From positions 38,479-102,478 of the forward strand of contig CALRMU020000004.1 of the NCBI GenBank assembly GCA_943369295.1: DNA of 64,000 bases, read 5' to 3'. This DNA comes from Synechococcus sp. UW140. GTDB lineage: Bacteria; Armatimonadota; Fimbriimonadia; Fimbriimonadales; Fimbriimonadaceae. The notes under the pieces were generated by a model. It was not told where the DNA came from, ran no database searches, and saw only the letters and a list, made by a program, of their open reading frames with translations. Below are positions 1-60,086 of the stretch, piece after piece. Each line of letters starts with the position of its first letter. Within the stretch, counting starts at the first letter, position 1. The translations under genes were made by a program, and so were the position numbers.

Positions 1-716
1 GCCTCTTCCATTTCTCGTAATGATCTAAAGCCGAGCAGTGTTGGTCCCTTTTTGGCTGATGCGGCGAGCAGAGAAAGGTGAGGGTTCGCACCTTTTGCCG
101 CGGTCTGGACCGATGGGTGGTGGCCTAAGGAGTCGCTGCCTCCTAAGGTCAATGGACTGCTCATTACGACTCCGACTCGGCGCGATTCGGCCATAGGACG
201 GAGGCTAGATTCAGTTTCGCCCGATGGAGTCTGCGGGAGCATGATGGCCTCGAAGGCATCGTGGAACTGCCACACGCTCTGTGCCGCCCAGGGTGAGCCT
301 AACACTTGAAGCCCAAAGAACTTGACCAGTCCTTCCTCTCTGGCTTCTTCCATGGCATCCAGGGCACCTGTAATCTGGTGCTCTTCAAGGGCAGTCTTGA
401 CGGGAAGAAAGCAGAATTCAAGGCAGTCTCGACCTAAGGCAGAAAGAAGGGCGAGCAGACTGGCCTGCAGCACACGAGAAGCGGCGGCAGCATCGTTTGC
501 CTTGCTGACCTCACGTCCGATGAGACCGATAAAGGGGACGTCGGCTCCGCGGAGATAGTGCCCCCACATAACTTGTGATGAGGATATTTCGACCGGCGCC
601 TGCCAATGCACGGCCATTTCGGCCATGGCACCTGCCTCACTTAAATCGGCTGGCTGCAGAAGTTTGGGCCAGATCGTGGGGAAGACCTTGTTGGTCCGCC
701 CAAAGGGTTGAATCAC
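1..716 (-). CDS. aldo/keto reductase-like oxidoreductase, partial (C-terminus runs off the window at position 1)
   Basis: Missing from the ORF track because it has no stop inside the window. Manual minus-strand translation from GTG 716 (alternative ATG 626; upstream in-frame stop at 761-759) to position 1 is stop-free. It reads ...RDCLEFCFLPVKTALEEHQITGALDAMEEAREEGLVKFFGLQVLGSPW...ESRRVGVVMSSPLTLGGS..., resembling AKR blocks (ALxxLxxxGKxRxxGxS; GVxVxxxSPLxxG). The + ORF 322..558 is antisense to it and looks spurious. Confidence 0.5.
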   Translation of the reverse strand, partial: MIQPFGRTNKVFPTIWPKLLQPADLSEAGAMAEMAVHWQAPVEISSSQVMWGHYLRGADVPFIGLIGREVSKANDAAAASRVLQASLLALLSALGRDCLEFCFLPVKTALEEHQITGALDAMEEAREEGLVKFFGLQVLGSPWAAQSVWQFHDAFEAIMLPQTPSGETESSLRPMAESRRVGVVMSSPLTLGGSDSLGHHPSVQTAAKGANPHLSLLAASAKKGPTLLGFRSLREMEE

Positions 717-802
717 ATGTTCATTCAACCCGACCAAATAGCAGCAGGGAGGGCCAATCTACCGCGAAGTTCCACGTTACAACTCGGTATCATGGGCCGC
801 TG

Positions 803-1561
803 ATGGACTTTTCATGGCTGTCTGAACCACAAACGTGGATTGCGTTTCTTACCCTTTTGATTTTAGAAATCGTTTTGGGTGTTGATAACATCATCTTCAT
901 CTCTATTCTCTCCGGCAAGCTGCCGCCTGAGCAGAGAAAGAAGGCGTGGCAGATCGGCTTGGGATTGGCTCTGGTTCTGCGCCTGGGACTGCTGTTCATG
1001 ATCAGTTGGATCATGGGATTGAAGGCTGACCTCTTTTTCATGTTCGGTCAAGGAATATCAGGCAAGGATCTGATTCTCATCTTTGGCGGCTTGTTCTTAA
1101 TGTACAAGGCGGTTAAGGAGATTCATGAAAAGCTTGAGGGAGATGAGCATGAAAAGAAGATTGGAGAGGTGACCTTTACCTCGGTCATTATTCAAATCCT
1201 CATCCTCGACCTGGTCTTTTCTCTTGACTCGGTTATCACTGCCGTTGGCATGGTCAAGCATATCGAAATCATGGTCGCGGCGATCCTGGTTGCCGTTGTA
1301 GTGATGTTGGTGCTGGCAGAGAAGATTGCGAACTTTGTTCACAAGCACCCGACCGTTAAGATGCTGGCCTTGGCATTCTTGGTCCTCATCGGTGTGACTC
1401 TTCTGGCTGAAGGAACAGGCAGCAAGATTCCTAAGGAATACATTTATTTCGCCATGGCTTTCTCAGTGCTGGTTGAAGTGCTTAACCTCAAGATGAAGGG
1501 AAGCAAAAAGGTTGTCAAGCTCAACGAAAAGTATGAAGATGAGCCTAAGCCTCTGGCCTAG
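803..1561 (+). CDS. TerC-family integral membrane protein
   Basis: Within track ORF 575..1561. The conserved part begins at ATG 803 (MDFSWLSEPQTWIAFLTLLILEIVLGVDNIIFISIL...). The GVDNIIF and LDSVITAVG motifs and multiple hydrophobic helices are typical of TerC/YoaE-type proteins. The 76-aa upstream extension is Arg/Pro-rich and unlikely to be translated. Confidence 0.8.
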   Translation: MDFSWLSEPQTWIAFLTLLILEIVLGVDNIIFISILSGKLPPEQRKKAWQIGLGLALVLRLGLLFMISWIMGLKADLFFMFGQGISGKDLILIFGGLFLMYKAVKEIHEKLEGDEHEKKIGEVTFTSVIIQILILDLVFSLDSVITAVGMVKHIEIMVAAILVAVVVMLVLAEKIANFVHKHPTVKMLALAFLVLIGVTLLAEGTGSKIPKEYIYFAMAFSVLVEVLNLKMKGSKKVVKLNEKYEDEPKPLA

Positions 1562-1582
1562 CATTCCTTTTCCCAGCCGAAC

Positions 1583-1624
1583 AAAAACCGGGGCCGCAGT
1601 TCAACTGCAGCGCCGGTTTTTGTT
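1583..1624. terminator. bidirectional rho-independent terminator between convergent genes
   Basis: aaaaaCCGGGGCCGCAGttcaaCTGCAGCGCCGGttttt: 12-position stem with 10 pairs, A-run upstream and T-run downstream. It sits between the TerC stop (1561) and the stop of the minus gene (1641). Confidence 0.7.
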
Positions 1625-1640
1625 GTCTTTCTAACTCAGC

Positions 1641-2450
1641 TTATACACCGTCGCCAGCTTCGGCGATCTTGGTGTACCTGCCACCAGCAAACTTGCCTAG
1701 GGTGCTGGATCCGGCTTCGTAACCACCCCAGCGATTGATGATCTCGAGGCCCGGCTTGCCGTCAAGGTTCCAAAGACCAGCAAATGAGGTGTGTCCGGTG
1801 ACTCCACCTTTCACCCCGCCCGTGTAGTAAATGACCGTGTTCTTCACTGTTCGACCAGAAACAGATCGGATCATGGCCAGAGAGAACTCTTCGGTTCTTG
1901 GTCCTTCCACCATGCTAGTGTAAACATTGTACATATCCTTGTCGGATCGGCTTCCAGCATAGATCAGCACTTCCTGAGTGCCATTGCCATCAAGGTCTGC
2001 CTGAATCACAGTGTGCAGCTTGATCGGGGGCTTTTTGTGTCCCTTTGTCTTCAAAAAGTCGCCGACTGCCTTGATGTAGGTGGCCGAAGTGTTGGAGATG
2101 ACATTGTAGGTGGGGGCGGCAGGCTTTGAACCAAACCACACAACGTTGTTGACAGGCAGGGTCCTGTTATTGACGATCCAGCCTCGATCACCAGGTCCAG
2201 CATCATCATTGCCGAAGACCAGGCCAGGGTTCTTTAGTTCCTTGGCTGTCTTGCCAGAAAGAACGAAGCATGAGCCGCTTGAAGCAGCCTTGACAACGGA
2301 ATCATCGATGGTTTTGTTGGGCCAGGATTTGCTGTAAATGCTGTCCATGGGCTTCCAATTGCCGCCTTGAGCAATGGCAAGTGAAAGGTTGTCAACGGCG
2401 AGAATTCCGCTCTGAGGAGCAAGAAGAAGGGAAGCAATAACTCCAACCAT
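1641..2450 (-). CDS. hypothetical secreted protein with FG-GAP/VCBS-like DxDGNG motifs
   Basis: 269-aa ORF with a hydrophobic N-terminus (MVGVIASLLLAPQSG...). Contains ADLDGNGTQEVLIY and WNLDGKPGLEII motifs reminiscent of FG-GAP/VCBS repeats. Function unknown and the start is uncertain. Confidence 0.55.
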   Translation of the reverse strand: MVGVIASLLLAPQSGILAVDNLSLAIAQGGNWKPMDSIYSKSWPNKTIDDSVVKAASSGSCFVLSGKTAKELKNPGLVFGNDDAGPGDRGWIVNNRTLPVNNVVWFGSKPAAPTYNVISNTSATYIKAVGDFLKTKGHKKPPIKLHTVIQADLDGNGTQEVLIYAGSRSDKDMYNVYTSMVEGPRTEEFSLAMIRSVSGRTVKNTVIYYTGGVKGGVTGHTSFAGLWNLDGKPGLEIINRWGGYEAGSSTLGKFAGGRYTKIAEAGDGV

Positions 2451-2519
2451 GACCTGATCTTATACCTGGCAGAAAAGGCGGACATGAAGGAAAAGAATCG
2501 CCAGCCAAATATGCTCATG

Positions 2520-2558
2520 GACTGTAGTTTTCTGGGCGACTGATTGAAAACTACAGTC
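2520..2558. repeat. perfect 13-bp inverted repeat (hairpin; possible terminator or operator)
   Basis: GACTGTAGTTTTC-tgggcgactgatt-GAAAACTACAGTC lies between two co-directional minus-strand ORFs. There is no clear U-tract on the minus strand. Confidence 0.4.
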
Positions 2559-2571
2559 CGTGAGGCTGGTC

Positions 2572-2859
2572 TCAGGGAACCAGCTTGATCTGGTCTGGTC
2601 TGAGTTCAGAGCCCTGGCTGGCAAGTCTGACCTTATCTCCCTTGCTGAAGGCCGACTTGGCTGACTGGAACCGGCTGTGCCTGCAGTCCTTGATCGTCAC
2701 CTTGATTGTGCGGCCTGCCGAAGAAAGGGTCAGCTCGGTCTGGATTCGGTGGCCCAGCTGGCCGGCAAAGTGCCTGCGAATCGTCACATCTTGAACTGTG
2801 TAGGCAGGGATCGCCTGGTCTAAGGCGTGGCTGGCAAGGAGGAGCATTGGGGGGAACAC
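2572..2859 (-). CDS. small hypothetical protein
   Basis: 95-aa ORF starting 22 nt downstream of the glycoside hydrolase gene stop on the same strand. No recognisable motif. Confidence 0.35.
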   Translation of the reverse strand: MFPPMLLLASHALDQAIPAYTVQDVTIRRHFAGQLGHRIQTELTLSSAGRTIKVTIKDCRHSRFQSAKSAFSKGDKVRLASQGSELRPDQIKLVP

Positions 2860-2880
2860 TTGTAATAAACCTCTTTTTAT

Positions 2881-5214
2881 TTAGGGATCAATTTTTGTGC
2901 CAAGTTTGATTACCCCACCCTTCGTCACCAGGGGGTCATGAAGAATTTTGTGGAAGTTTCTGAGCCTGATCTTCGTTGTTCCCGCAAGTCTCTTGGCGCT
3001 ATCGACGAGCAGAAGGTTATCCAGCCTAACCGGCCAGTTCATCACTCCATCATCTGGCCCACCCCACCATCCTGCACCTTTTGCAGAGACATCAAACCGA
3101 ACAATACGCCAGCCCACCCAGTCGATCACGACTCCGTTTGGCTGAAAGGTTTGGCCCTTCGCATCCACGAACCTCGATCGCAAAATGTTTCCGCTGCCAT
3201 CGCCCTCCACCTCAAGACCGTAGCTGACCACTTCTCCTTCCTTGCTCGCCAAGGTGGGGAAGGGCTCGGCACGAATGAGTGAGTAGCTCCAGCCAGCAGG
3301 AAAGGTGGAGGAATAGATCCAGGTTCCTGGCTCGCTCGGGTCAGGTCGTACTGATGCTTGGGGTGGTTTCTCACCTTCGCTGTGGCTGGAGAATTGGGGA
3401 GCTGAATCGTAAAGGGGGACGAGTTTCTGCCAAGGCTGGGCCGCAACAACTCTTCCGTTTAGTGAGACAGAGGCTCGAAACCCTGCCTGTGGCTTGAGAT
3501 CAAGCTTCTGAACGAGACTTCCGTTCACTTGCAGAGGCTTGGCCCCGGCTTGAGTTATGAGCATTAGGCTCCCTTTCCAGCCTGTGGGATTCTTTAGAAG
3601 CATTGTCTCAGAATCAGCTCCGAGTTCTATGGTTAACGGAGTCTTTGGAACGAGAGTCAGGGTTCGAGTCTGAGGGATTGAATTCTTGCCCGCCAATGAT
3701 GCAGTGAAAGCAATCGGCTTGCCTATGCCATAGGCTGCCTTGACTTGATCCAGAAGTGTCTTGAACTGTTCCGCCTTAGTTCTGGGCAGATCAGGCACAC
3801 TGCGAGCCTCTATCTGGAACTGTAAGTTGTCTTCACCCACCGCAAAAACTCTCATTTCATCCTGGGCCCGAACAGCGCGAAGGCTGTCCAGCCATGGGCC
3901 AAGCAGTTTTCGGACATCGCTCTCAGTCTCGACTTCATAAGCTTGGTTCTTAGCTGGGAGCATTGCAAGGCTTCTCAGCCAGTCATCGACCTTTTCAGGC
4001 ACTAGTAACTTCGGAGTGCTGGTGAAGGTGACTCCCTTTTCTCTCGTAAAACTCACCTCTTCAGATCCAGATTCGGAAATCAGGTTGCCCTTGCCCGGGG
4101 TCAAAGGAAGACGGGCAGCGAAGGGCTGGTTGGTCTGGCTCCAAACAGCGAGACGGATTTCTTGGCCCTTCGTGAAGATCAGAATTCTGGCTTCATCGCC
4201 TTCGCTCGGCAGAATGTCTCGACTCACATCCGCGGCAAACTTAAACCCCTTCAGCTCCTTGGCGAAAAAGGCGAGGAGCTTTGACGCTGGCTTGTCGGAC
4301 AGATCGTGGCTCAAAATTCCGAAGTGGTGTTCAGGCTCGTTGGGGTCTGTGCCGTCGTTCTTCCAGTCGTAGTAAATGCTGAGGTTCACGCCCGCCGCCA
4401 GGTTGCTTAGGTACTGGCGGGCGACGTAATCGGCCTTTAGCTGAGGGGTTTGCCCCTTCCAAATGCCGGAGTAGCCCCACTCTCCGCTGAGGAGAGGCAG
4501 GGTTCTGCCTCCGCTGTATTTGGCGGTGAGGAGGCGCAGCTTCTGCCAATCTTCAAACGAAGTTTCTGGCTGAGTCTGCCTGTAAGGATGGACTGAGACA
4601 GCATCGAAGTACTTTAGGACTCCTCTTGTGAAGGTGCCTTCGAGAAAAGCCCAGTCGAACCCGGATGTCGCTGGCCCGATGTACCACTCTTGGGGAGCGA
4701 CTTCTCTCATCATCCTGCCGACAGAGACAGCAAGCCTTGAGTAGAGCTCAACATTTGGCTCCGGCTTCCAAAACAGGGCCAGGTTGGGCTCGTTCCACAT
4801 CTCCCACAAAACGCCTTGGCCCTTGTACCTTTCCACTGCCTTGCGCACAAATTCCACAAAGGCAGCCTGGGCAGCTTCGGTCTTGGGAGCTCCTTTTTCA
4901 TAGAGGTCGTTGCCGTAATCGAGGATGAAGAGGGGGCGGATTTGGTGCTTCTTTAGGTGCCCCATCAGGCGGTCGTAGCCGGAAAAATCGTATTTGCCTT
5001 TTTCTTTCTCGACCTGGCTCCAAAAGAGGTCCATCCTCACCCACTTGATACCGAGCGCTGCCATTTTCTCCATCTCGCCTGGCTGGGGATCGGTGAAATG
5101 GATGTTGACTCCCCAGCCTGAAGGGACCGTCGCGTCTGGCAGGGGGAACCTTTCTCGGTATGAGAGGTTCTGGCTTTGGGCAATGGAGAGGCCGAGGAGG
5201 GTGGCTGAGATCAT
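2881..5214 (-). CDS. glycoside hydrolase, GH5-like (beta/alpha)8 catalytic domain plus long C-terminal region
   Basis: 777-aa ORF with an N-terminal signal-like segment (MISATLLGLSIAQSQ). WGVNIHF...IKWVRMDLFWSQVEKEKGKYDFSGYD...GVLWEMWNEPNL carries the clan GH-A 'NEP' acid/base motif. The ~450-aa C-terminal part has unknown domains. Confidence 0.75.
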   Translation of the reverse strand: MISATLLGLSIAQSQNLSYRERFPLPDATVPSGWGVNIHFTDPQPGEMEKMAALGIKWVRMDLFWSQVEKEKGKYDFSGYDRLMGHLKKHQIRPLFILDYGNDLYEKGAPKTEAAQAAFVEFVRKAVERYKGQGVLWEMWNEPNLALFWKPEPNVELYSRLAVSVGRMMREVAPQEWYIGPATSGFDWAFLEGTFTRGVLKYFDAVSVHPYRQTQPETSFEDWQKLRLLTAKYSGGRTLPLLSGEWGYSGIWKGQTPQLKADYVARQYLSNLAAGVNLSIYYDWKNDGTDPNEPEHHFGILSHDLSDKPASKLLAFFAKELKGFKFAADVSRDILPSEGDEARILIFTKGQEIRLAVWSQTNQPFAARLPLTPGKGNLISESGSEEVSFTREKGVTFTSTPKLLVPEKVDDWLRSLAMLPAKNQAYEVETESDVRKLLGPWLDSLRAVRAQDEMRVFAVGEDNLQFQIEARSVPDLPRTKAEQFKTLLDQVKAAYGIGKPIAFTASLAGKNSIPQTRTLTLVPKTPLTIELGADSETMLLKNPTGWKGSLMLITQAGAKPLQVNGSLVQKLDLKPQAGFRASVSLNGRVVAAQPWQKLVPLYDSAPQFSSHSEGEKPPQASVRPDPSEPGTWIYSSTFPAGWSYSLIRAEPFPTLASKEGEVVSYGLEVEGDGSGNILRSRFVDAKGQTFQPNGVVIDWVGWRIVRFDVSAKGAGWWGGPDDGVMNWPVRLDNLLLVDSAKRLAGTTKIRLRNFHKILHDPLVTKGGVIKLGTKIDP

Positions 5215-5309
5215 TTGTCCCTGTGCTTTATGTTAGCTTGAATCAAGGAGATAAGTGCTTGCAGCTCACGCGTCGCTGGAAAAACAGAATTGCAAAAAAG
5301 AGCGGTGGT

Positions 5310-6440
5310 TAAACCTTCTCATTCCTGGCTGAGCGAAGCTCATCCAGGCCACAGTCACTTGTTGCTTCGATGAGGCTTGCTCTAGATTGCACTGGCGATG
5401 CCAGTGGCACAGGTTTCAGAAATCGAGAGTTTCCAGTTGATTAGTTCGGCCAAAGTGTTCTTGGACTATCAAGCTTTGGTGCCCCGGTCTGGCAGCGAGG
5501 CACGAGCAGAAGGCCGGGAACGGAAAATCAAGCGAAAATCGGGAAAAGTGCCACTGGCATCGCCAGTGCTCTTTTAGGATAGGCCTGAACTAGACTCTCA
5601 GCTGCTGCACCGTTGGCACAACTAGGAGATGAAGAAAGTTCGATTCTCAAGCATTACCATTCCTGGCTGAGCGGAGCTCAATCAGGACACAGTCACTTGT
5701 TGCTTCGACGAAACTTGCCCTAGATCGCACTGGCGATGCCAGTGGCACAGGTTTCAGAAATCGAAAGCCACCTGCTTAGGGTTTGGTGCAATGCGTTCGT
5801 CAGCCGACAAGATATGGTGCCCCGGTCTGGCAGCGAGGCACGAGCTGAAGGCCGGGAAAGGAGAGGTTCTGAACGTGCTATTCACCTCGTTTTCGTGCCA
5901 CTGGCAGCGCCAGTGCTGTTTCACAATGGGCGTGATCTAGACTCCCAGCTGCCGCAGAGTTGGCAAAACTAGGAGATGAAGAAAGTTCGATCCTTAAGCT
6001 TTACCATTCCTGGCTGAGCGGAGCTCAACCAGGCCACAATCACTTGTTGCTTCCACGAAACTTGCCCCAGATTGCACTGGCGATGCCAGTGGCACAGGTT
6101 TCATCTGTTAGAAACCTAAATTGAATACAAACTACAATGCGTTCGTCAGCCGACAAGCTATGTTGCCCCGGTCTGGCAGCGAGGCACGAGCTGAAGGCCG
6201 GGAAAGGACAATCAAGCGAGAATCGGGAAGAGTGCCACTGGCAGCGCCAGTGCTGTTTCACAATGGGCGTGATCTAGACTCTCAGCTGCTGCAGAGCTGG
6301 CAAAACTAGGAGATGAAGAAAGTTCGATCCTCAAGCTTTACTATTCCTGGCTGAGCGAAGCTCAACCAGGCCACAGTCACTTGTTGCTTCGACGAAACTT
6401 GCCCTAGATCGTACTGGCGATGCCAGTGCTTTTTCACCTC
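5310..6440. repeat. tandem array of 3.3 copies of a ~340-bp non-coding unit containing inverted REP-like palindromes
   Basis: The unit landmark ATTCCTGGCTGAGCG recurs at 5321, 5659, 6006 and 6343 (periods 338/347/337). Palindrome CACTGGC-GAT-GCCAGTG occurs at 5390, 5728 and 6075 (degenerate at 6412). Its inverse CACTGGC-A[TG]C-GCCAGTG occurs at 5552, 5899 and 6236. A conserved hairpin block GCCCCGGTCTGGCAGCGAGGCACGAGCWGAAGGCCGGGAA is present in each full unit. No ORF is conserved across all copies. Confidence 0.9.
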
Positions 6441-6519
6441 ACTCGTGGTTGTGACTCACCCTTCATGCTTTGCGACTACTTAGCGAACCCTGTCAAAGCT
6501 GTCAAACCTTTTTGCTCCC

Positions 6520-6562
6520 TCAAAAACAGAAAACTGCCCCTGGCCAGAAGGCCAAGGGCAGT
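6520..6562 (-). terminator. rho-independent terminator of pdhB
   Basis: Minus strand reads ACTGCCCTTGGCC-ttct-GGCCAGGGGCAGT followed by tttctgtttttg, beginning 25 nt after the pdhB stop. Confidence 0.75.
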
Positions 6563-6586
6563 CGAACTTTCCAGCCGCAGAGATTC

Positions 6587-7561
6587 TTACTTGAACTTGC
6601 GGAAGGCAGCGATGACGTCGTTCTCATCCGGGATGCACTCGAGTTCAAGAACTCGCGCATAGGGCATGGGAACATTGAGTCCGCCAACGCGAAGGACGGG
6701 AGCGTCCAGGTCATCGAAGCAGTCTTCGCTGATCGAAGCGGCGAGTTCGCCACCGAAACCACCGAACTTCCAGTCTTCCTGCACCACAATGGCGCGGTGA
6801 GTCTTGCGGACTGATTCGTAGATCGTCGTTCTATCCAAGGGAGCCAAGGATCGAACGTCGACGACTTCAACACTGACTCCTTCCGCCGCCAGCTTTTCTG
6901 CCACAGCCAGGTTGACCTGGGTCATGCGGGAGTAGCCGATGAGGGATACATCAGTTCCTTCTCGCAGGATCTGAGCCTTGCCGAAAGGAACGGTGAAGGT
7001 CTTGTCGTCGGGAATCTCGCCCTTCAGAGTGTAAAGGCCGGGGTTCTCGGTGAAGATGACAGGGTTGTCATCTCGGATCGCCGTTTTGATCATGCCGTAG
7101 ACGTCGGCGACTGTGGCGGGGGCCACAACCTTGAGTCCAGGGCAGTGGGCGTACCAGCCTTCAACCGAGTGGCTGTGCTGAGCAGAGAGCTGCTTGGCAG
7201 CGCCGCCTGGGCCACGGATCACCATGGGGCAGGTGGCCTGGCCACCCGTCATGTAGTGCACCTTGGCAGCGTGGTTGAGAATCTGGTCCATGGCGAGAAT
7301 TGAGAAGGACATAGTCATCATCTCAACAATCGGCCTCAGGCCAGTCATGGCAGCTCCGATCGCGATGCCTGTAAAGCCGGGCTCGGTGATAGGAGTGTCG
7401 ATGATCCTTCGTTCGCCGTACTTGGGCAGAAGACCAGCGGTCACCTTAAAGGTGCCTTCGTAGCGGCCAATGTCTTCTCCCATGATAAAGATGTTGTCAT
7501 CTCTATCAAGCTCTTCAATGATTGCCTGGCGGAGGGCGTCGCGGTAAGTGGTTTGAATCAT
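6587..7561 (-). CDS. pdhB: pyruvate (2-oxoacid) dehydrogenase E1 component, beta subunit
   Basis: 324 aa. ...IFIMGEDIGRYEGTFKVTAGLLPKYGERRIIDTPITEPGFTGIAIGAAMTGLRPIVEMMTMSF... is typical of heterotetrameric E1 beta (transketolase-like Pyr and C-terminal domains). Confidence 0.88.
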   Translation of the reverse strand: MIQTTYRDALRQAIIEELDRDDNIFIMGEDIGRYEGTFKVTAGLLPKYGERRIIDTPITEPGFTGIAIGAAMTGLRPIVEMMTMSFSILAMDQILNHAAKVHYMTGGQATCPMVIRGPGGAAKQLSAQHSHSVEGWYAHCPGLKVVAPATVADVYGMIKTAIRDDNPVIFTENPGLYTLKGEIPDDKTFTVPFGKAQILREGTDVSLIGYSRMTQVNLAVAEKLAAEGVSVEVVDVRSLAPLDRTTIYESVRKTHRAIVVQEDWKFGGFGGELAASISEDCFDDLDAPVLRVGGLNVPMPYARVLELECIPDENDVIAAFRKFK

Positions 7562-7579
7562 TTCTTGCTCCGTGTCCTC

Positions 7580-8596
7580 TTAGTGGCCCTTCTCCGGCTC
7601 AATATCGGAGTAGACGTTGGCGTAGACCTCATCTGGGGCAGGGAATGGCGAGGCATCAGCCTTCTCGTAGATGTCATCCACGGCCAGCCTTAGCTCTTCG
7701 TCAATCTCTTCAAGCTGCTCAGCGGTAAGGATGTTTCTTTCGATGAGAGTGCGCTCCAGTCTCAAAACTGGGTCGCGCTTAAAGTTCTCTTCCTCTTCTT
7801 CCTTTGTTCGGTAAAGCTGCCTGTCGTTGTCGGCTGCGCCATGGCCCGCAAAGCGGTAGTTCATGGCTTCAACCAGATAAGGCTTCTTGTTGGTGCGAAC
7901 GTAATCGACAATTCTCATGGCGTCTTCGCGAACCTGAAGGACATCCATATTGTCGAGCCTTTCGGACTTGATGCCGAAGGGAAGACCTCGCTTGTAGAGC
8001 TGGGTGTCAGAGGCGTGGTACTCAAGCCTCGTGCCCATAGCGAATTCATTGTTTTCAATGACGAAGACAATCGGGAGATCCCACAGAGCAGCCATGTTCA
8101 AGGTTTCAAACACGACGCCAGCGTTGCTGGCTCCATCTCCCAAGTAGCAGATGGTGACTCTGTCTTCGTTTCGGTACTTGGCGGCGAAGGCAAGGCCAGC
8201 ACCAAGCGGGATGTGTCCACCAACGATTCCCCAGCCGCCATAGAAGCAGCGTTCGATATCGTAGATGTGCATCGATCCGCCTTTGCCGTGGCTATAGCCA
8301 CCGCTGCGGCCCATGATTTCGGCCATGACCTTGACCGGGTCGCTGCCCATGATAAGGGGCTGAGCGTGGTCGCGGTAGGCGGTGATCACGTAATCCCAGC
8401 CAGGCTTAAGGGCTTCATTCCAGCCCACGGCAGTCGCTTCCATGCCAATGTAGACATGCATGTAGCCACCAACCTTGCCTTGCCGGTAAGCGACATTGCA
8501 TTTGTCTTCAAAGCGCCGAATGAAGAGCATCTGACGGTAGAGCTCTTCCAGTTTGGCGGGTGAGAGCTGTTCTGGAGTCTGGGCCGTATTCGCCAC
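7580..8596 (-). CDS. pdhA: pyruvate (2-oxoacid) dehydrogenase E1 component, alpha subunit (TPP-binding)
   Basis: 338 aa with a GTG start preceded by gaggaag. Motifs: YRQMLFIRRFEDK...GKVGGYMHVYIGMEA...GKGGSMH...YLGDGASNAG (TPP motif). It lies 18 nt upstream of pdhB. Confidence 0.88.
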   Translation of the reverse strand: MANTAQTPEQLSPAKLEELYRQMLFIRRFEDKCNVAYRQGKVGGYMHVYIGMEATAVGWNEALKPGWDYVITAYRDHAQPLIMGSDPVKVMAEIMGRSGGYSHGKGGSMHIYDIERCFYGGWGIVGGHIPLGAGLAFAAKYRNEDRVTICYLGDGASNAGVVFETLNMAALWDLPIVFVIENNEFAMGTRLEYHASDTQLYKRGLPFGIKSERLDNMDVLQVREDAMRIVDYVRTNKKPYLVEAMNYRFAGHGAADNDRQLYRTKEEEEENFKRDPVLRLERTLIERNILTAEQLEEIDEELRLAVDDIYEKADASPFPAPDEVYANVYSDIEPEKGH

Positions 8597-8801
8597 GTTT
8601 TTATCTTCCTCTGGAAAGGGCAGGTCGTCAGCCGACTTTCCCCTTTAGGGGTCGTTCGGGCGGACTGGTGGAGAATACCCCTGGCGATATGGGGGGCAGG
8701 GTTCCTTGAGGGACCCTGGTTATTCTTGCGGTGAAAGAGGCCGAAGCCCTTCCTTTCGCTTGCGAGAGGAAGGGGCAGGGGATGGAGAGCGAAATACTGC
8801 T

Positions 8802-10076
8802 TCAGCCCAAAGCTGACCTGAATGCCGCTTCGGTTCTGTTCAAAATTTCGTCGATCTCAGCTTCAGAAATCACGATGGGGGGCGTGTAGCGGAAAGTGCG
8901 ATTTCGCGTTTCTTTGGTCAGGACTCTCTGGGCTGTCAGGGCCTTGCTTAGAGCCTTTGTGTCGGTTCCTTCTTCGACTTCCAAACCGATAAGCAGACCG
9001 CGAGACCTAACCTCTTTGATGCAGGAAAAGGGAAGAGACCTTAATCCATCCGTCAGCCTGGCTCCCATGGCCTCAGATTTGCCACAGAAGTCTTTGACCT
9101 CCATTTCTGTCATTGCGGCCAAAGCCACAACACTGCCAAGAGGATTGCCGCCAAAGGTGCTTCCGTGGTCGCCAGGAACAAAGACTTCCATCACTTCTTT
9201 TTTGCCGATAGCAGCAGAAACAGGAAGAATTCCTCCACCCAGAGGTTTGCCTACGGCCAGGATGTCTGGCTTGGCATCTTCGTACATCCAAGCGAATTTA
9301 CGGCCGGTTCGGCAGAAGCCAGTCTGAACTTCATCCCAGATAAGAAGAACATTGTTCTTGGTGCAAAGCTCGCGGACCTTGGCCATCCACCCGTCGTCCG
9401 GAATCAAGATTCCACCTTCTGCCTGAATCGGTTCGACCAAAAAAGCGGCTGTGTTCGGGGTGATGGCTTCTTCGAGAGCGGCCAGATCGTTGAAGGGAAT
9501 GACCTTGAAGCCAGGGGTGAATGGGCCGAAGTGCTTTTTGTACTGGTCTTCGGTGCTAAAGCCTACGATCGTTGTGGTTCTGCCGTGGAAGTTGTCTTGG
9601 CAGACAATGATTTCAGCCTGGTCTTCGGGCACTCCTTTGACCGTGTAGGCCCACTTTCTGGCCAGCTTAATGGCGGTTTCGTTGGCTTCTGCTCCTGTGT
9701 TCATGGGGCAGGCCATATCAAGCTCGGCGTACTCGCACAGAGCTTTTAGAAAGAGAGCGACCTCGCTGGAATAGAAGGCTCGGCTGGTGACTGTCACCAA
9801 ATCAAGCTGCCTGCGAAGGGTCTCGACCACGAAGGGGCTCAGATGGCCATGGGCTACAGCTGAATAAGCGCCGATGCAGTCAAAGTAGAGGTTTCCCTCT
9901 TGATCCCACACCTTCACGCCTTCGCCGCGAACAGGGTTGACGGCTAAAGGCTTGTAGTTATGAGTTCCATAAGCCTCCGTCATCTGGAAGACCTCGGCAT
10001 CGCTTAGGGCGGCTACAGCTTCCTGCACTCCCTCTTCGGCGAGGGTCTGCCACAGATTTTTCTGGAGGCTCTGCAT
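8802..10076 (-). CDS. rocD: ornithine aminotransferase (class-III PLP aminotransferase)
   Basis: 424 aa. EAYGTHNYKPLAVNPVRGEGVKVWDQEGNLYFDCIGAYSAVAHGH...NTGAEANETAIKLARKWAY...DEVQTGFCRTG closely follows the OAT/RocD pattern. Confidence 0.8.
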   Translation of the reverse strand: MQSLQKNLWQTLAEEGVQEAVAALSDAEVFQMTEAYGTHNYKPLAVNPVRGEGVKVWDQEGNLYFDCIGAYSAVAHGHLSPFVVETLRRQLDLVTVTSRAFYSSEVALFLKALCEYAELDMACPMNTGAEANETAIKLARKWAYTVKGVPEDQAEIIVCQDNFHGRTTTIVGFSTEDQYKKHFGPFTPGFKVIPFNDLAALEEAITPNTAAFLVEPIQAEGGILIPDDGWMAKVRELCTKNNVLLIWDEVQTGFCRTGRKFAWMYEDAKPDILAVGKPLGGGILPVSAAIGKKEVMEVFVPGDHGSTFGGNPLGSVVALAAMTEMEVKDFCGKSEAMGARLTDGLRSLPFSCIKEVRSRGLLIGLEVEEGTDTKALSKALTAQRVLTKETRNRTFRYTPPIVISEAEIDEILNRTEAAFRSALG

Positions 10077-10163
10077 GTCTTGAGTTTGGAGGATAGGGAA
10101 GCCCCTTGTGAACCCCTTTGGCTGAATGTCCTGCCCCAGTTTTTGGGGGTATAGACTGGAGCC

Positions 10164-11744
10164 ATGTCGATAATCGAGATCATTTGGCTGTCTGTCGGCC
10201 TTGTGGTCGGGCTGGTTCTCTCTGCTCTGCTCTTCATGGCTGGCTCCAACAAGCTGAAGGCTAAAGCGGCTGAGGCGGAGGCTGACTTTCTTAAACAGAA
10301 GAGTGAACTGGACAGGAAAATTGCGGAAAGCACCCCAAAACTGGAGCGTTTAGCCAAGCTTGAGGAAGACGTGGTGACGATTCAGAACCAGTTGAGAGAA
10401 TCTGAGTCGAAAGCTGCTACAGAGGAATCTAAAGCTTCTGAGAGGCTAAGGGAACTGGAGGATCGGCGCCAGAGACTGGAGCAGCTTGAGCGAGATTTGA
10501 ACGCCAAGACGGAGATCATCACCCAGTTTGAGACAGAGAAGGCTCGGCTTCAGTCTCAGATGAAAGCGGCTCAAGACAACTTAGAAGAACAGAAAGTTCT
10601 GCTGCGTGAGGCGGAGTTTAAGTTCAAAGATGCCTTCACGGCTCTCTCTTCTGAGGCGCTGAAGTCGAGTCAAGACCAGTTTCTTAAGTCTTCGCAGGAG
10701 ATTCTTAAGCAGTACACAGAAGGAGCCAAGAACGAGTTTGGCAAGAAATCAGAAGAGTTCGGCAAGCTGCTTGACCCCCTGAAAGAAAAGCTGGGAGAAC
10801 TGGATAAACAGAATCAAGAAATGGAGAAGTCTAGGGCTTCAGCCTATTCTGAACTTAAGCAGCAGGTGACTCAGCTTAGCAGTCAACAGGTGGACTTGAC
10901 GAAAGAAACCTCGAGGCTGGTGAAGGCCCTTCAGGATCCTGGCACGGCAGGAAGCTGGGGAGAAATGCTTCTGGAAAAGGTGGTCGAAATGGCTGGCCTT
11001 CCCGAAGGAATCATCTTTGAATTGCAGGAAAGCACGACGACGGAGGAGGGAAGACAGAGGCCGGATATGGCTATTCGTCTGCCTGGCGACCGCTGCCTTA
11101 TCGTTGACAGCAAGGCCCCGCTTAAGGGATATCTTGATGCCCTTGAATCAGAAGATGAGACGATTAAAGCGGGTCTGCTGAAGGAGCTTCCGCGGAAGCT
11201 GCTGGGGCACGCTCAGGAGCTGAAGAAAAGAAGCTACGATAAGAGAGTCGAGACCCCAGACTTCACCGTCATGTTCATCCCCAGTGAATCAGCGTTCCGA
11301 GTAGCTTTGGAGCAGAGACCTGGATTGATTGAGGAAGTAATCGATCTGCGCGTAATTATGGCGACTCCTTCGACGATGCTGGCTCTGCTGAAGGTTGTGG
11401 CCTATGGTTGGCGGCAGGACAAGCTGACTCAGACTGCCAAAGAGGTGCAGGAACAGGCTCAGAGATTGTACGAAACGGTGGTCACTCTGATGGGTCATTA
11501 CGAAAAGCTTGGTCGAGCGTTAGGCAGCGCCGGCAAGGCCTACAATGAGTTCGGATCGTCCCTCAACTCGCGAGTGGTTCCGGCCGCCCGCAAGTTCAGA
11601 GACTTTGGGATTTCGGCCAAGAACGAAGTCTCGGAATCTGAGCTGATCGAATTTGCCCCGAGACCCCTTGTGGCTCCCGACTTTCAGTCGAAAAACGCTC
11701 TGCCCGCCGGGGACACGGGCCTTTTCGGTGAGGAGGCCGAGTAG
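10164..11744 (+). CDS. rmuC: DNA recombination protein RmuC
   Basis: 526 aa: N-terminal TM helix, long coiled-coil (E/K/Q-rich), then the RmuC nuclease-like C-terminus (RPDMAIRLPGDRCLIVDSKAPL...FTVMFIPSESAF). Confidence 0.85.
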   Translation: MSIIEIIWLSVGLVVGLVLSALLFMAGSNKLKAKAAEAEADFLKQKSELDRKIAESTPKLERLAKLEEDVVTIQNQLRESESKAATEESKASERLRELEDRRQRLEQLERDLNAKTEIITQFETEKARLQSQMKAAQDNLEEQKVLLREAEFKFKDAFTALSSEALKSSQDQFLKSSQEILKQYTEGAKNEFGKKSEEFGKLLDPLKEKLGELDKQNQEMEKSRASAYSELKQQVTQLSSQQVDLTKETSRLVKALQDPGTAGSWGEMLLEKVVEMAGLPEGIIFELQESTTTEEGRQRPDMAIRLPGDRCLIVDSKAPLKGYLDALESEDETIKAGLLKELPRKLLGHAQELKKRSYDKRVETPDFTVMFIPSESAFRVALEQRPGLIEEVIDLRVIMATPSTMLALLKVVAYGWRQDKLTQTAKEVQEQAQRLYETVVTLMGHYEKLGRALGSAGKAYNEFGSSLNSRVVPAARKFRDFGISAKNEVSESELIEFAPRPLVAPDFQSKNALPAGDTGLFGEEAE

Positions 11745-12311
11745 GTGGCGGAAGGAAGGGCCCTAAGGAAGAAGAAGGAAGTCCGCGACTTGATGAGAGA
11801 GTTCGCGGCTGGCCACAACCCGGCGCAAGAAGTCACTTTCCTCCTGCAAGATTGGTCAGATGCTTACAACGTTGGGGGGCTGCTCAGGGTCGCTGACGGG
11901 CTGGGAATCAAAAAGCTTTACTGCACGGGCAAGACTCCTCAGCTGCCCAATCCTATGATTCCTGTCACCTCGATGGGGGCCCATAGAAGGGTTGAAATGG
12001 AGTACCACAAGGTTCATGAAGAGGCGGCAAAAGCGGCCATCGAGGACGGATGGACCTTGATCGGGGTGGAGATTGCCGAGGGCGCCGAACCCCATTTTGA
12101 TTTCGACTACCCCCCAAAGACCTGCTTGGTTTTAGGGGCGGAAGGAGCTGGAGTCTTCCCCAGCGTTCTCAAGCATTGTAAAGGTTCTGTGTTTATTCCT
12201 ATGCAGGGCAAGGGGCGCAGCCTCAATGTTCACGTATCAGGAGCGGTCGTCGCTTTTCACGTCATGGCTGAATCGTGGCGGGCAGGTGGAACCAAAACAA
12301 GTGAAGATTAG
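11745..12311 (+). CDS. SpoU/TrmH-family RNA 2'-O-methyltransferase
   Basis: 188 aa; the GTG start directly follows the rmuC stop. Motifs: YNVGGLLRVADGLGI...LVLGAEGAGV...IPMQGKGRSLNVHVSGAVVAF (SPOUT knot motifs). Confidence 0.8.
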   Translation: MAEGRALRKKKEVRDLMREFAAGHNPAQEVTFLLQDWSDAYNVGGLLRVADGLGIKKLYCTGKTPQLPNPMIPVTSMGAHRRVEMEYHKVHEEAAKAAIEDGWTLIGVEIAEGAEPHFDFDYPPKTCLVLGAEGAGVFPSVLKHCKGSVFIPMQGKGRSLNVHVSGAVVAFHVMAESWRAGGTKTSED

Positions 12312-17772: not shown

Positions 17773-20700
17773 ATGAAGCGTTCGCCAGCAGTTCCGCGTT
17801 TATCGTGGATGGCTTGGATGCTCGTGGCGACGGCCATGGCATCTGCGCAGGGTCAACCTGAAGCGACAGTCACGTCGACTTCGGTTGAATCTGGCGGCAA
17901 AACCTACGTCGAATCCATCCGACTCAGCCCCAATCGCTTTTCTCAGGCGCTTCGTTTTGGGGCCATCAAGCGCGGTTCAGAAACTCTTGACCTAGGCGGA
18001 AAGAGGCTGGCTAAGGGAACCGATTACGAAATCGATTACCCCTCCGGCACGATCTACCTGAAAGTTCCAGTTCAAGAAGGTCAGCAGCTTCGCGTCAACT
18101 ACCGTTACGATGAGGAAAAAGGCGCGGCTGGCAGCTTCGGCATGGCCGGCACCACCTCGACCTCTGGCTTCAACGGATTCAAGTTCGATTTTGCCCAAGG
18201 CAACTCAGCTTTTGTCGGCCTCGGGATGACCGAAAGATTGGGTGACGGGACGGTGCTGAGCAGCAACGTTTACGGAATCTCCAATTCGTTCAGCCTCATG
18301 CCCGGCACGAGTCTCAAGGGCCTCTTCATGGTAGGTCAAAGGGATAACACTCAGTCCACCGACATGCTGACAGGCGCCTCCAACCGATCTTCGGTTGAGG
18401 AGGGGCAGGGCAGAGCCTTGATCCAGAGCCTTGAGAGCCGAGTTGGCAAGAAGGGCAAATTCACTGCCTACTTCCAAGACATCGATTCTCGATTCGGCGG
18501 CTTCCAAGCCTTGGGTGCGAATGGCTACACCGGCGACCAAGTCGGGCAGCTTTCGCGAGAAAAGGGCCTCAAAAGGACTGCTCTCGGCTTCGATAACATT
18601 GGCACCGATTCCGCCAACATTTCCAACAGTCTCCAGACTGTCGGCGACGACAACGGCACCATCACGCGGCGAACTGCAGCGGCTGAAGGCAAGGGCTTTA
18701 AGCTGAATTGGTGGAGCCAGGATGTCGATAAAGGATTCACTCGCTTTGCTGACATTGGCGCTGCCGACTGGCAGCAGATGGGCAAGGAACGCGGCTTCGT
18801 CCGCGAAGGAATGAGCGGATCGCTCGGCTTTGCTGGTGGTCAAACTCAGTTTTCTACACTCAAGCTCGATTCTGAGCAGGGTGGCCTGGCTCGTTCCAGC
18901 CTCGGAATCACGGCGGGCCGTTGGAAGATCGGTTTCAGCGAGCAGAGAGTCGATCAGGGTTTTGTCCGGTTCGGCGACCTGAGAGGCGACGAGTGGAATG
19001 GAGCTCAGCTTCAGCACGAACGCGGCCTTCTTCGCAGAAACTACGCAATCGATGGTGAGGTTGGCAAGGGCCAAAAGGTTGCCGCCAGCCAGGGAGTCGT
19101 TCGGACCTCCGACGCCGATTTCTCCAGCTTGGACATGACTGCCAATCTGGGCAAGTTCTCCATTGAGCACATCAATCGCACGGTTGACAAGAGCTTTAAC
19201 CGCCTTGGCAGCTTGGGCGGAGACGTTAACGCTCATGCCGCAGCTGCCTTGAAAGTCAGCTCATCGGCCAACCCTCAGGGGCACGATATCGGGGCCTTTT
19301 TGAACAGCGCCGGACTCGAAAGAAGCTCTTGGCGGCTTGGATTCAACTTTGATAAGGGCAGCTCAGTCTCCCTTCACACCTCAGATATTAAGGGCAAGGA
19401 TGACAAGCTGGGTTCTAAGGAACTCAACATCAAGACCCCCAACCTGAACCTGAAGGTTAGAGATCAGAAGACTGGCGATAAGTTCAGCGAAGTCAGCAGG
19501 CTCATGCCGTCAGAGCATGGGGTGCATGGTGCTTCGGTCGGCCTTAATCGCCAGGACATCAGCGGAGATATGAAGCTGGGTGGATCTAGAACCCTGGCTT
19601 TCTCCAAGACTTCCGCCAACGATCTGGGCGGCGATCTTTCACGCGAAACCTTGAGCATGAGAGACAAGGGTCTGGAACTTGACTACAAGTCGCGCAATGT
19701 CGACAGCAAGTTTCAGGGCCTCGGCTCCTTCGCAGACCCCGAAAGAGATCTCTTTAGAGCCCTTTCTGGCTACAAGACTCAAGAAGGTCGTCTGAGATGG
19801 GCTCCTTCCAAGTCTCTCAGCATTGAATCTGACCTCTGGGGTTGGGAAGAAATTCTCGGCTCAAAGGAGCGCTTTACCGAAAGGACTCTCGTTCGATGGC
19901 AGGCCGATAAGGCTACATCTTTTGAGATGCTGAATACCGAGCATCGCTTCGGAGATGAGTTCGGCGATCAGGTCAATCAGAGAGGACAGAAGTTCACCCT
20001 CGGAAGAGACATTGCTTCCTTTGGAAAGCTGACCCTCAGCCAGGATGCTCAGACCTACGATGGCAGCGGCGAAAAGAATCCTGACTCCCTGACTAGGTCA
20101 GTCAGCTTCCAGGCCAAGCTGAACCCCAAGACCGGCTTTAAGACTGAGCAGTCTGAAACAAGATTTGAGGATGGAACCCGCACCACGGTTCTTTCCAATA
20201 CCCTCAGCACGGATCTCACCAACCGGGCTGGAGTCAGTGTTACCCAAACCAACGTCAACCGAGACGGCGAGAAAACTGACGAGACTCATCGCCAGTATGG
20301 TTTTTGGTATGACTTCGGCAAGGGAATCAAGTTCAACTACGGCTACCAGAGAGCCCTGAACGGCGAAGAAGGCAGCCTGAACAGCAAGACTGAACTGACT
20401 CCTGGCACGGTCCAGGATGTCAAGATCGACTCTGCTTCCTATAGTCAAGTTCGACAGGATGACAGGCGAGATCAGACCATCGGCCGATTCAGTCTAGCCA
20501 GCGCCAAAGCCATGAACTGGGGAATCCTCCAGGATGTCCGCTTCTCATTCAACGCCGATACTCACCGCGATCAGTATCGATGGCAGAGAGAGAACAGGTC
20601 CATGAACTTTGCGGCATCGCATGACGCCATGGGATTCGGATTTGACTATAACAGTCAGGTCAGCCCCACCGGTGATCGAGCCATTGACCGATTTTTCAGC

Positions 20701-33897: not shown

Positions 33898-34793
33898 CCC
33901 TCGCCCCAGAGCATGTCCCTGTAATGCTCAAAGAGGTGATGGATATTCTTCCCCTGAAGCCAGGGGGGGTCTATATGGATGGCACCCTGGGCTTGGCTGG
34001 CCACGCACTGGCCGCCGCTGAAAAGGTGCGCCCCGGCGGAAAGATCATCGGCTTTGATTGGGATGCCTCCCTCTTGGCTCGAGCCCAGGTTAGACTCGCC
34101 GAGCTTAAGGGTGTCGAAACTCTGTTCTATCACGATGATTTTCGATCTGCCCCTGAGTGGCTTCGAGATTCTGTCCAGGTCAATGGCATGCTCCTAGACC
34201 TGGGAGTCAACAACGCTCACTTTGAACTGGCCGAGCGAGGCTTCAGCTACCGTTTCGATGGCCCATTGAATATGCGCATGGATAGGAGCAAGGGCGAAAC
34301 CGCCTCTTCTTATCTCAACCGCGCCACGGTCACCGACATCGAAAAGACTTTATGGACTTATGGTGATGAAAGGTGGGCGAGAAGAATCGCTCAGGTCATC
34401 GTCGATCGCCGTCCCCTTCACACCACTCAAGATCTTGTGGACTGCGTACATGCCGCTGTTCCACCGGCAATGAGAGATAAGAACATTCACCCGGCCAGCC
34501 GCACTTTTCAGGCGATCCGCGTGAAGATCAACGCCGAGCTGGATGAGCTTGAGGAGACGATGGTCGAACTCGCCGGACTCCTTGCTCCTGGCGGAGTCCT
34601 GGCGGTTCTTAGCTACCACAGCGGCGAAGATCGGGCCGCAAAAGCGGCTTTTCGTTCGCTCGCCCAGGAGCCTCACTACACAGAACTTTACCGCAAACCC
34701 CTGCTTCCTTCGCCTGAAGAAGTTGAAGCAAACCCCAAGGCGAGAAGCGCGAAACTGCGCGCGATTCGCCGAAACCCGGAGACCTTATCATGA
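33894..34793 (+). CDS. rsmH: 16S rRNA (cytosine1402-N4)-methyltransferase
   Basis: 299 aa; ATGA overlap with mraZ. HVPVMLKEVMD...YMDGTLGLAGH...DLGVNNAHFE..RGFSYRFDGPLNMRMD...FQAIRVKINAELDEL are canonical MraW/RsmH motifs. Confidence 0.92.
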   Translation: MTLAPEHVPVMLKEVMDILPLKPGGVYMDGTLGLAGHALAAAEKVRPGGKIIGFDWDASLLARAQVRLAELKGVETLFYHDDFRSAPEWLRDSVQVNGMLLDLGVNNAHFELAERGFSYRFDGPLNMRMDRSKGETASSYLNRATVTDIEKTLWTYGDERWARRIAQVIVDRRPLHTTQDLVDCVHAAVPPAMRDKNIHPASRTFQAIRVKINAELDELEETMVELAGLLAPGGVLAVLSYHSGEDRAAKAAFRSLAQEPHYTELYRKPLLPSPEEVEANPKARSAKLRAIRRNPETLS

Positions 34794-60004: not shown

Positions 60005-60086
60005 GCGCAACCCTGAGCAAGAACGGCTAGGATTCGGTGACGACGAAAATTGCAGGTTTCAGTTTGAGTGATTGGCTTAATCCTTG

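Follow-up and report, generated by a model that had tools for sequence, protein, structure and literature searches.

What is the ~1.1-kb array of structured repeats that lies between pdhB and a glycoside hydrolase (GH)-like gene in the genome assembled as Synechococcus sp. UW140 (GCA_943369295.1, contig CALRMU020000004.1), a member of an Armatimonadota-like lineage: a tandem family of small RNA (sRNA) genes, or repetitive DNA? We analysed the 64,000 nucleotides that contain it (positions 38,479 to 102,478, hereafter the window, in whose own numbering coordinates are given). A preliminary description, made from the letters alone, had offered both ~170-nt sRNA genes and a satellite derived from paired, hairpin-forming repetitive extragenic palindromes (REPs), termed REPINs, or from miniature inverted-repeat transposable elements (MITEs). 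The array is probably repetitive DNA resembling a REP cluster, of the kind known as bacterial interspersed mosaic elements (BIMEs) or REPIN clusters, and not a set of dedicated genes.

This reading starts from direct observations, namely the anatomy of the array, the dispersal of its modules, the polymorphism of its copy number and the absence of compensatory change in the stems of two of its palindromes (REP and block 3). We favour the satellite candidate because the REP palindrome is dispersed inside and outside this genome and occurs in inverted pairs, and because near-identical strains differ in copy number and relatives only slightly more distant lack the element. From these observations we infer a mechanism of amplification and recombination, a mobilising protein (similar to REP-associated tyrosine transposases, RAYTs) or binding protein encoded elsewhere, and, for the region between pdhB and the GH-like gene, a possible local influence on mRNA stability or termination.

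Anatomy of the array

Tandem Repeats Finder (TRF) returned a single tandem array in the window (5320-6428, period 337, 3.3 copies, 83% matches, score 1444), with units of ~338 bp arranged head-to-tail in the spacer between pdhB and the GH-like gene. Alignment of the four units recovered a five-part anatomy. The array of 3.3 units of ~340 bp, the five parts and the two flanking genes given in the preliminary description were thus borne out by TRF, by the positions of the first hairpin (hp1), by the unit alignment and by a Pfam scan. The modules as delimited are a core of 70 nt (hp1 and spacer), REP(+) with its tail (24 nt), a first variable segment V1 (64-65 nt), block 3 (42 nt), a second variable segment V2 (27 or 36 nt), REP(-) (21 nt) and a tail (89 nt), and they are placed as follows.

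5320-5389, plus strand: unit A core, hp1 hairpin (5324-5348) and 41-nt spacer with a TTGCTT..TAGATT element
5390-5413, plus strand: unit A REP(+), CACTGGCGATGCCAGTG and the tail GGCACAG
5414-5478: unit A V1, variable in sequence and constant in length
5479-5520: unit A block 3, a conserved imperfect palindrome with the invariant centre CAGCGAGGCACGAGC
5521-5547: unit A V2, 27 nt, A/C type
5548-5568, minus strand: unit A REP(-), GTGC and CACTGGCATCGCCAGTG, an exact inverted copy of REP(+), then CTCTTTTAGG
5569-5657: unit A tail linker, with AGGAG-ATG and a 13-codon open reading frame (ORF) at its 3' end, not retained in the relative L029
5658-6004, plus strand: unit B, with core 5658-5727, REP(+) 5728-5751, V1 5752-5816, block 3 5817-5858, V2 5859-5894 (36 nt, B type), REP(-) 5895-5915 and tail 5916-6004
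6005-6341, plus strand: unit C, with core 6005-6074, REP(+) 6075-6098, V1 6099-6162, block 3 6163-6204, V2 6205-6231, REP(-) 6232-6252 and tail 6253-6341
6342-6467, plus strand: partial unit D, with core 6342-6411, solo palindrome TACTGGCGATGCCAGTG at 6412-6428, then CTTTTT (terminator-like on the plus strand) and a short tail whose 3' end is CCTTCATG at 6460-6467
2881-5214, minus strand: GH-like gene, 777 aa
6532-6563, minus strand: strong intrinsic-terminator-like hairpin of pdhB (14-bp stem and T run), between pdhB and the array and outside the repeat
6587-7561, minus strand: PdhB gene (Transket_pyr/Transketolase_C, Pfam)

The hp1 hairpin (CCTGGCTGAGCGRAGCTCA) was found at 5324, 5662, 6009 and 6346 against 0.06 copies expected by chance, the palindrome CACTGGC-NNN-GCCAGTG 11 times in the window against 0.06 expected, and block 3 three times against 0 expected, counts far above chance that substantiate the hairpin, the palindrome and the hairpin block first described. 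Seven of the 11 palindromes belong to the array, where they alternate in orientation (+ - + - + - and then solo) between two linker classes reiterated in tandem, the arrangement by which BIMEs and REPIN clusters are recognised. Identity among units A, B and C was highest for REP (0.95-1.00) and block 3 (0.95-0.98), followed by the tail (0.83-0.96) and core (0.87-0.91), and was lower for V1 (0.60-0.72) and V2 (0.42-0.85). The palindrome of unit D (6412-6428) has a solo form without the GGCAC tail, and the sequence 3' of it is homologous to that 3' of REP(-) in units B and C; the region between palindromes therefore behaves as an indel bounded by 17-nt direct repeats. A 21-bp REP(+)::REP(-) stem around the block 3 hairpin was predicted both in the minimum free energy structure and in the RNAalifold consensus of four units, a long hairpin of the REPIN sort.

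In the mechanism that we propose, each unit would consist of three sorts of palindrome (hp1, the 21-nt REP in both orientations, and block 3) joined by linkers. The inverted REPs of a unit would pair as a 21-bp stem enclosing V1, block 3 and V2 to give a REPIN-like hairpin and, each REP being itself palindromic, the two copies could also serve as 17-nt direct repeats. Slippage or recombination between REPs would delete what they enclose, so that only a solo palindrome stays, the form seen in unit D and the relative L001. Unequal homologous recombination between cores would add or remove whole units, which would account for the 3.3 units of the window, the chimeric core of L001 and the one unit of L029. 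V1 and V2 would escape homogenisation, and the palindromic modules may be kept alike by gene conversion and/or by a protein that recognises their sequence.

The variable segments are mosaics. V1 was constant in length in five sequences (65-67 nt with anchors different from those of the module lengths above), with units A and B alike over the first ~17 nt and units B and C alike over the last ~32 nt; V1 of L029 was a mix of A-like and B/C-like stretches and that of another relative, L030, was B-type throughout. The preliminary length of ~58 nt falls short of the 64-65 nt measured, and the statement that V1 of unit A is unrelated after ~10 nt proved wrong: ~17 nt are common with B, and the 3' part is a diverged homologue. 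The remark that segments swapped between conserved modules do not look like simple decay was fair, and as their cause we favour old, diverged unit alleles that were shuffled by recombination with the palindromic modules kept alike. V1 would represent old alleles rather than products of rapid mutation, because L030, a more distant relative, has the B type. Hypermutation of V1 by a diversity-generating retroelement or otherwise was rejected on this ground and because the differences extend beyond adenines; inversion of V1 or V2 between units was also rejected, with reverse-strand scores at background level.

Copy number among relatives and recurrence of the modules

The gene order pdhA-pdhB-spacer-GH was conserved among relatives and the content of the spacer differed. 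The loci compared are listed with their identity to the window at 4-fold sites.

L001 (0.93-0.95): a single core with the solo palindrome, its 5' part with unit A variants and its 3' part with unit D variants
L029 (pdh side 0.91, GH side 0.70): a single unit, not in tandem, whose core is degenerate; both REPs are present, and block 3 has a single substitution
L030 and L031 (0.76 for L030, GH gene): core, REP(+) and V1 of the B type, with the contig ending inside block 3
L035 (0.65, GH gene): element absent
L033: element absent
L032 and L034 (0.53-0.79 for L032): element absent, unrelated ORFs in the same spacer

The comparison of array length between strains that had been proposed thus counted 3.3 units for the window and one for L029, with a single chimeric core for L001. 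Between units A and B, core and tail have diverged by 13-17%, which exceeds the difference between the window and L001; the array would therefore predate that split and L001 would be a collapse, the array having most likely been lost by recombination between the first and last cores. Identity at 4-fold sites between L029 and window positions 1-12100 falls from 0.91 (pdhA/pdhB) to 0.70 (GH gene), which indicates a recombination breakpoint at or adjoining the repeat-bearing spacer. The spacer of L035 and L033 is short and empty, and the GH protein of the ORF-holding lineages L032 and L034 is ~74% identical to that of the window. From these comparisons the pdhB-GH spacer appears to be an insertion hotspot in the lineage. 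The small ORFs in this spacer (L032 4942-5908, L034 2317-2580) encode 87 aa in both and 230 aa in L032, with no precomputed Pfam match. The insert is bracketed by CATTCCTG at 5320-5327 and CCTTCATG at 6460-6467. L035 (1-174) reads CATTCCTG directly followed by CTTTGCGACT, and the window reads CATTCCTG, the array and CCTTCATG directly followed by CTTTGCGACT, the left flank being otherwise not alignable. Tentatively, L035 resembles an unoccupied site whose target duplication would be 8 bp; across the insert as a whole, terminal inverted repeats are weak. The array marks a recombination-prone, strain-variable spot that breaks short-read assemblies.

The REP palindrome (7-8-bp stem, 3-nt loop, 5-nt tail) is the only unit component that recurs elsewhere within the window, and all 11 copies lie outside long ORFs. 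The copies outside the array form a second cluster.

60086-60333: second REP cluster, with REP(-) at 60086-60107 and REP(+) at 60214-60237, 60261-60284 and 60310-60333

Here REP(-) is followed by a gap of 107 nt and then by the three REP(+) at a period of ~48 nt, each with (A)ATGATT on its 5' side. The cluster is adjoined by a gene for a pyridoxal phosphate enzyme of Cys/Met metabolism (58780-59940, plus strand) and by a glycogen/starch-synthase-like gene (60357-61787, minus strand). The 85 nt upstream of the second-locus REP were considered as a homologue of the array core and rejected as not significant (z = 0.5-3.7, in the range of the window background).

Outside this genome, the 21-mer pattern CACTGGCGNTGCCAGTGGCAC, with one free loop base, matched 26 loci in 185,579 GTDB species genomes (L003-L028) where by our own estimate ~1 match was expected by chance, and 23 of the 26 were in metagenome-assembled genomes (MAGs) of Planctomycetota; the MAGs with the 21-mer include Planctomycetaceae, Pirellulales, Kuenenia and Fuerstiella. 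The Planctomycetota copies are mostly inverted doublets (GTGTGCCACTGGCnnnGCCAGTG - 10-110 nt - CACTGGCnnnGCCAGTGGCACAC) with a variable hairpin in the middle, and lie between long ORFs in at least six loci. At several loci a larger palindrome encloses the doublet, its outer motif being CTAGTGCTCTGTCA ... TGACAGAGCACTAG. The 21-mer was also present on 16 IMG/VR contigs (L036-L051), and a rough count of our own gave ~9 extra REP sites in ~315 kb of the 42 other-genome loci, or ~1 site per 35 kb. A Pirellulaceae MAG holds two non-coding elements of ~340 nt (L012 3520-3900, L013 1250-1600) with inverted REPs at their ends and tails pointing outward; the two share ~88% identity and differ by one internal indel, and the same palindrome is here used in a MITE-like way. 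No recurring neighbour gene family was found beside REPs in the 42 loci, no Y1 transposase among eight adjacent ORFs of other loci, and no Rfam match above the gathering threshold in 18 REP-bearing loci. No paper on the palindrome motif turned up in our literature search, and none on REPs of this sequence in Planctomycetes or on the Yong-DA record discussed below. The palindrome also reads as a sigma-54 promoter (TGGCA-N6-GTGC); this follows from the palindrome itself and the 'promoters' of a doublet would face each other, and it was treated as coincidence.

The other two palindromic modules recurred on a plasmid-like replicon. A 'distant' BLASTN of unit B against a phage collection matched block 3 in three near-identical records of 42,586 bp, Aphanizomenon phage Yong-DA, Afl-JY11 and Planktothrix phage Pag-JY44 (ON073792.1, here L054; PP438404.1; PP438434.1). 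The replicon is circular and encodes Rep, a ribbon-helix-helix (RHH) protein, ParA, ParB, a 'recombinase' and ~20 exopolysaccharide genes, with no annotated phage structural genes. Its UDP-glucose dehydrogenase has its best named relatives in Fimbriimonadaceae (66-70%), and the samples that yielded the window relatives L029 and L034 also yielded related replicons. By gene content, the three GenBank 'cyanophage' records look like one plasmid of an Armatimonadota-like bacterium from cyanobacterial cultures. The copies on the replicon are the following.

19583-19642, 34234-34292 and 40228-40281: block 3
19539-19563 and ~19664-19691: hp1

At one site block 3 lies between two hp1-like 25-mers, at distances of 57 and 28 nt and in the absence of any REP, and the spacer 3' of hp1 is homologous to the core spacer of the window. 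The presence of hp1 and block 3 without REPs implies that the array unit combines REPs with an hp1-block 3 module. nhmmer profiles found no further hp1 or block 3 in ~700 kb of DNA, which included the three related plasmid-like replicons L080 to L082; REP is absent from these replicons as well. Metagenome scans with the hp1 and block 3 patterns gave 0 matches in a collection that evidently lacks the samples of L001 and L029, a scan of the viral collection with the block 3 pattern gave 0 matches, and no match was found among PLSDB plasmids. The 25 viral matches of the 17-mer CAGCGAGGTCACGAGCT were discarded, as none has block 3 flanks and 19 are in one unrelated context.

Several points weigh against reading the array as a REP cluster. 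In classical REPs one foot bears a conserved tag, GTAG or CGTC (PMC3733652). This tag is absent here, the foot being GTGCC/GGCAC, and the palindrome is therefore best called REP-like and not a classical REP. No RAYT, Y1 or other transposase was found among the ~45 Pfam-scanned window ORFs or beside REPs elsewhere. REP density in the lineage is low, with two loci in 64 kb and none further in ~95 kb of relatives' DNA, and the array linkers of ~145 and ~160 nt compare with 1-30 nt in BIMEs. The single core of L001 could be an assembly collapse and not biological. Block 3 and the REPs (0.95-1.00) are more alike between units than core and tail (0.83-0.96), which makes some function for them likely. 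Finally, hp1 has one compensatory pair (8-18, G-C to U-A or U.G) and pairs better on the minus strand (95.5% of cells) than on the plus strand (89.4%), a pattern that hints at selection at the RNA level and comes from six sequences and one pair, with 33 of 500 shuffles equalling it.

REP families are normally restricted to one genus or species. A bolder version of the REP-like reading, which we hold to be doubtful, is that (G)CACTGGC-NNN-GCCAGTGGCAC is one REP-like family common to Planctomycetota (many classes, Kuenenia included) and this Armatimonadota-like lineage, kept near-invariant by a horizontally mobile enzyme that reads the sequence or by a conserved host factor. The units would then be REPINs with a cargo, inverted REPs around a protein-bound block 3 and two allele-like variable segments, which move between chromosome and plasmid and are possibly transcribed too. 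A phylum-spanning REP family with modular cargo would, if true, be a new kind of REP system.

Transcribed and cassette alternatives

The first alternative is a tandem set of sRNA genes on the plus strand. The core would supply the promoter (TTGTTGCTT..TAGATT), the RNA would start at REP(+) and end at REP(-) and a U-tract after ~185 nt, V1 and V2 would be paralogue-specific seeds, and unit D and L001 would produce an RNA of ~105 nt ending in the solo palindrome and UUUUU. On the plus strand, a terminator scan flags 6411-6429 followed by TTTTT and 5552-5568 followed by CTCTTTT, and 7/7 copies of block 3 contain a U.G pair. The -10-like TAGATT is similar to the TACATT found upstream of tRNA-Arg, and conserved frames around variable segments are the pattern of sRNA paralogues. 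There is also a precedent in ssr9 with ISPpu9, a REP-linked sRNA module (PMC12288879). The promoter-like TTGCTT-N15-TAGAT element of the preliminary description does exist and is degenerate in unit C as described; however, a promoter scan found no excess of sites over shuffled sequence, and L029 has kept the REPs and block 3 but not the element. The inverse palindrome proposed as terminator is followed by a U-tract in unit A, as is the solo palindrome in unit D, but the U-tracts 3' of REP(-) are weak in units B and C and in L029. Promoter and terminator are thus not kept in all copies and relatives, and the plasmid copies of block 3 lack both the promoter element and the REP terminators.

The covariation check proposed for the array gave no compensatory change in the REP stem or block 3 hairpin (RNAalifold, four units); the one pair found was in hp1, which lies outside the proposed sRNA. 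Among seven copies of block 3, 7/12 pairs were broken in some copy and 0 were compensated, and the centre CAGCGAGG(T)CACGAGC was invariant but for a 1-nt indel and one loop substitution in L029, which suggests sequence-specific recognition or recent common descent and not selection for an RNA helix. A conspecific strain (L001) dispenses with the whole array, and such a change of copy number between strains is the finding that the preliminary description had itself named as telling against its ~170-nt sRNA genes. Rfam 15 matched only tRNA-Arg in the window above the gathering threshold and gave nothing credible at E <= 10 in 5000-6800. With no positive support gained, we think the sRNA alternative unlikely, and annotators should not label the units as sRNA genes without expression data.

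The units do not encode a conserved protein either. The earlier statement that no ORF survives in all copies was confirmed by codon counts and reading frames: the frame opened by the ATG of the palindrome has 59 codons in A, 78 in B and 13 in C, and the block 3 frames differ between A and L029. The palindrome-ATG ORF was rejected as a gene, its frame and length being conserved neither between units nor in L029. An AGGAG-ATG with a 13-codon ORF (MKKVR(S/F)(S/L)S(F/I)TIPG*) is present at 5608-5663, 5955-6010 and 6292-6347, with its stop inside hp1; this MKKVRSSSFTIPG ORF is probably not a gene, being absent from L029 and the plasmid copies.

The second alternative places the function on the minus strand, on which both flanking genes are also encoded. 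Here hp1, and perhaps the REPs, would form hairpins at the 3' end or in the leader of the pdhAB and GH transcripts, with a role in termination, stabilisation or insulation, in the manner of the REPs in the 3' untranslated regions (3'-UTRs) of E. coli, which a recent preprint describes as 3'-UTR regulators (doi 10.64898/2026.03.23.713779). The array would then be a long structured spacer or leader. On this strand hp1 forms an 11-bp stem with G.U pairs, the hp1 pairing bias and compensatory pair given above point the same way, and the folding of the unit against shuffled sequence was stronger (z = -3.5 on the minus and -2.1 on the plus strand). In addition, a plasmid hp1 in the same, minus-sense orientation lies ~27 nt past the stop codon of a GDP-mannose dehydrogenase gene and is followed by the U-rich UGUUGUUUU. 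Yet pdhB has its own strong terminator before the array, hp1 in the window has no U-tract on the minus strand, the covariation amounts to one pair in six sequences that 33/500 shuffles match, block 3 has no strand preference (89% plus against 87% minus by our own count), and no array accompanies the GH gene in L001, L035 and L033. We regard this role for the array as improbable, to about the same degree as the sRNA genes.

A site-specific recombination cassette array, in which block 3 (imperfect arms of ~12 bp around an invariant centre of 9-10 bp) or hp1 is the recombinase site and units are integrated and excised as circles, is very unlikely. The outer arms of block 3 do vary uncompensated around an invariant centre, as for a DNA site bound by protein, three block 3 copies lie on a replicon that encodes a 'recombinase', and n units are bracketed by n+1 hp1 in the array as at the plasmid site. 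But Pfam scans of the window ORFs showed no recombinase gene near the array, related replicons that carry an integrase lack the sites, ordinary homologous recombination explains the L001 junction, and inspection of the sequence revealed no dif and no attC core (GTTRRRY). A CRISPR array or integron cassette was likewise rejected: the conserved part exceeds the variable part, the repeats alternate in orientation, the Pfam scans found no cas or integrase gene and no GTTRRRY was seen.

An assembly artefact had been raised as a concern, and bears on the interior (5412-6381), which is present in the window assembly only. The independent Logan assembly of ERR9580635 (same strain) includes a contig 100% identical to the window over its full 11,180 nt (L002), and short-read contigs end at the array edges (L002 at window position 6382, L052 at ~5411) with an exact match where they overlap them. 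Wrong expansion of a repeat has a negligible chance of explaining the array, because its units differ by 4-17% in conserved modules and have distinct V1 and V2, none of which false expansion creates, and because both edges match independent contigs exactly; relatives also carry the same modules. Elsewhere, the window holds the full dcw cluster with FtsA and FtsZ, in which one ORF (44890-47148, 752 aa) is a fusion of Mur ligase (MurC-like) and D-Ala-D-Ala ligase domains. Among named sequences this FtsZ is closest to those of Fimbriimonadaceae and Armatimonadetes MAGs (63-67% identity), the GH protein gives the same indication, and we take the source to be an uncultured, deep Armatimonadota-like lineage.

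Comparison with known repeat systems

To our knowledge, nothing has been reported on repetitive non-coding DNA in Armatimonadota. The closest counterparts of the array are the BIMEs of E. coli, which are clusters of REPs (BIME-1 and BIME-2), with a site for integration host factor (IHF) in the BIME-1 linker. Both systems have alternating short palindromes and two alternating linker classes, and are intergenic, tandem and strain-variable in copy number (PMC3333891). As in BIME-1, where it is the IHF site, one linker class of the array carries a further conserved motif. Unlike BIMEs, the array has a palindrome without the GTAG tag, the extra modules hp1 and block 3 and an Armatimonadota-like host, and no RAYT was found for it in ~45 window ORFs and eight REP-adjacent ORFs.

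Reportedly, Bertels and Rainey described REPINs and REPIN clusters of Pseudomonas fluorescens SBW25 in 2011. The array shares with these the inverted REPs that form a long hairpin, singlets as remnants, ordered tandem clusters and conserved spacing, and differs in a 'loop' of 145 nt with a conserved hairpin and two variable segments. The REP tails point inward within the array unit, in contrast to the outward direction in the Planctomycetota doublets.

The NsiR1 repeats upstream of hetF in Nostoc are a tandem sRNA array of short units, each transcribed and conserved across species. They resemble the array in being intergenic head-to-tail repeats with a promoter-like and a terminator-like element each; unlike them, the present array is dispensable within its species. 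The ssr9 module of ISPpu9 in Pseudomonas putida is REP-associated and non-coding and occurs with or without the transposase (PMC12288879). It is like the array a REP-linked non-coding module and behaves as a selfish passenger, but ISPpu9 inserts into a REP, where the array instead has complete palindromes flanking an interior and no IS110-family gene was seen.

Set beside these systems, the locus is, on the REP-cluster reading, a REP/BIME-like system with very long, modular linkers. It is ordinary as strain-variable repetitive DNA, and unusual in its very long linkers, its three kinds of palindrome and the base-for-base sharing of one of them with another phylum; if one enzyme or host factor maintains the 21-nt palindrome in both groups, REP systems can cross phyla.

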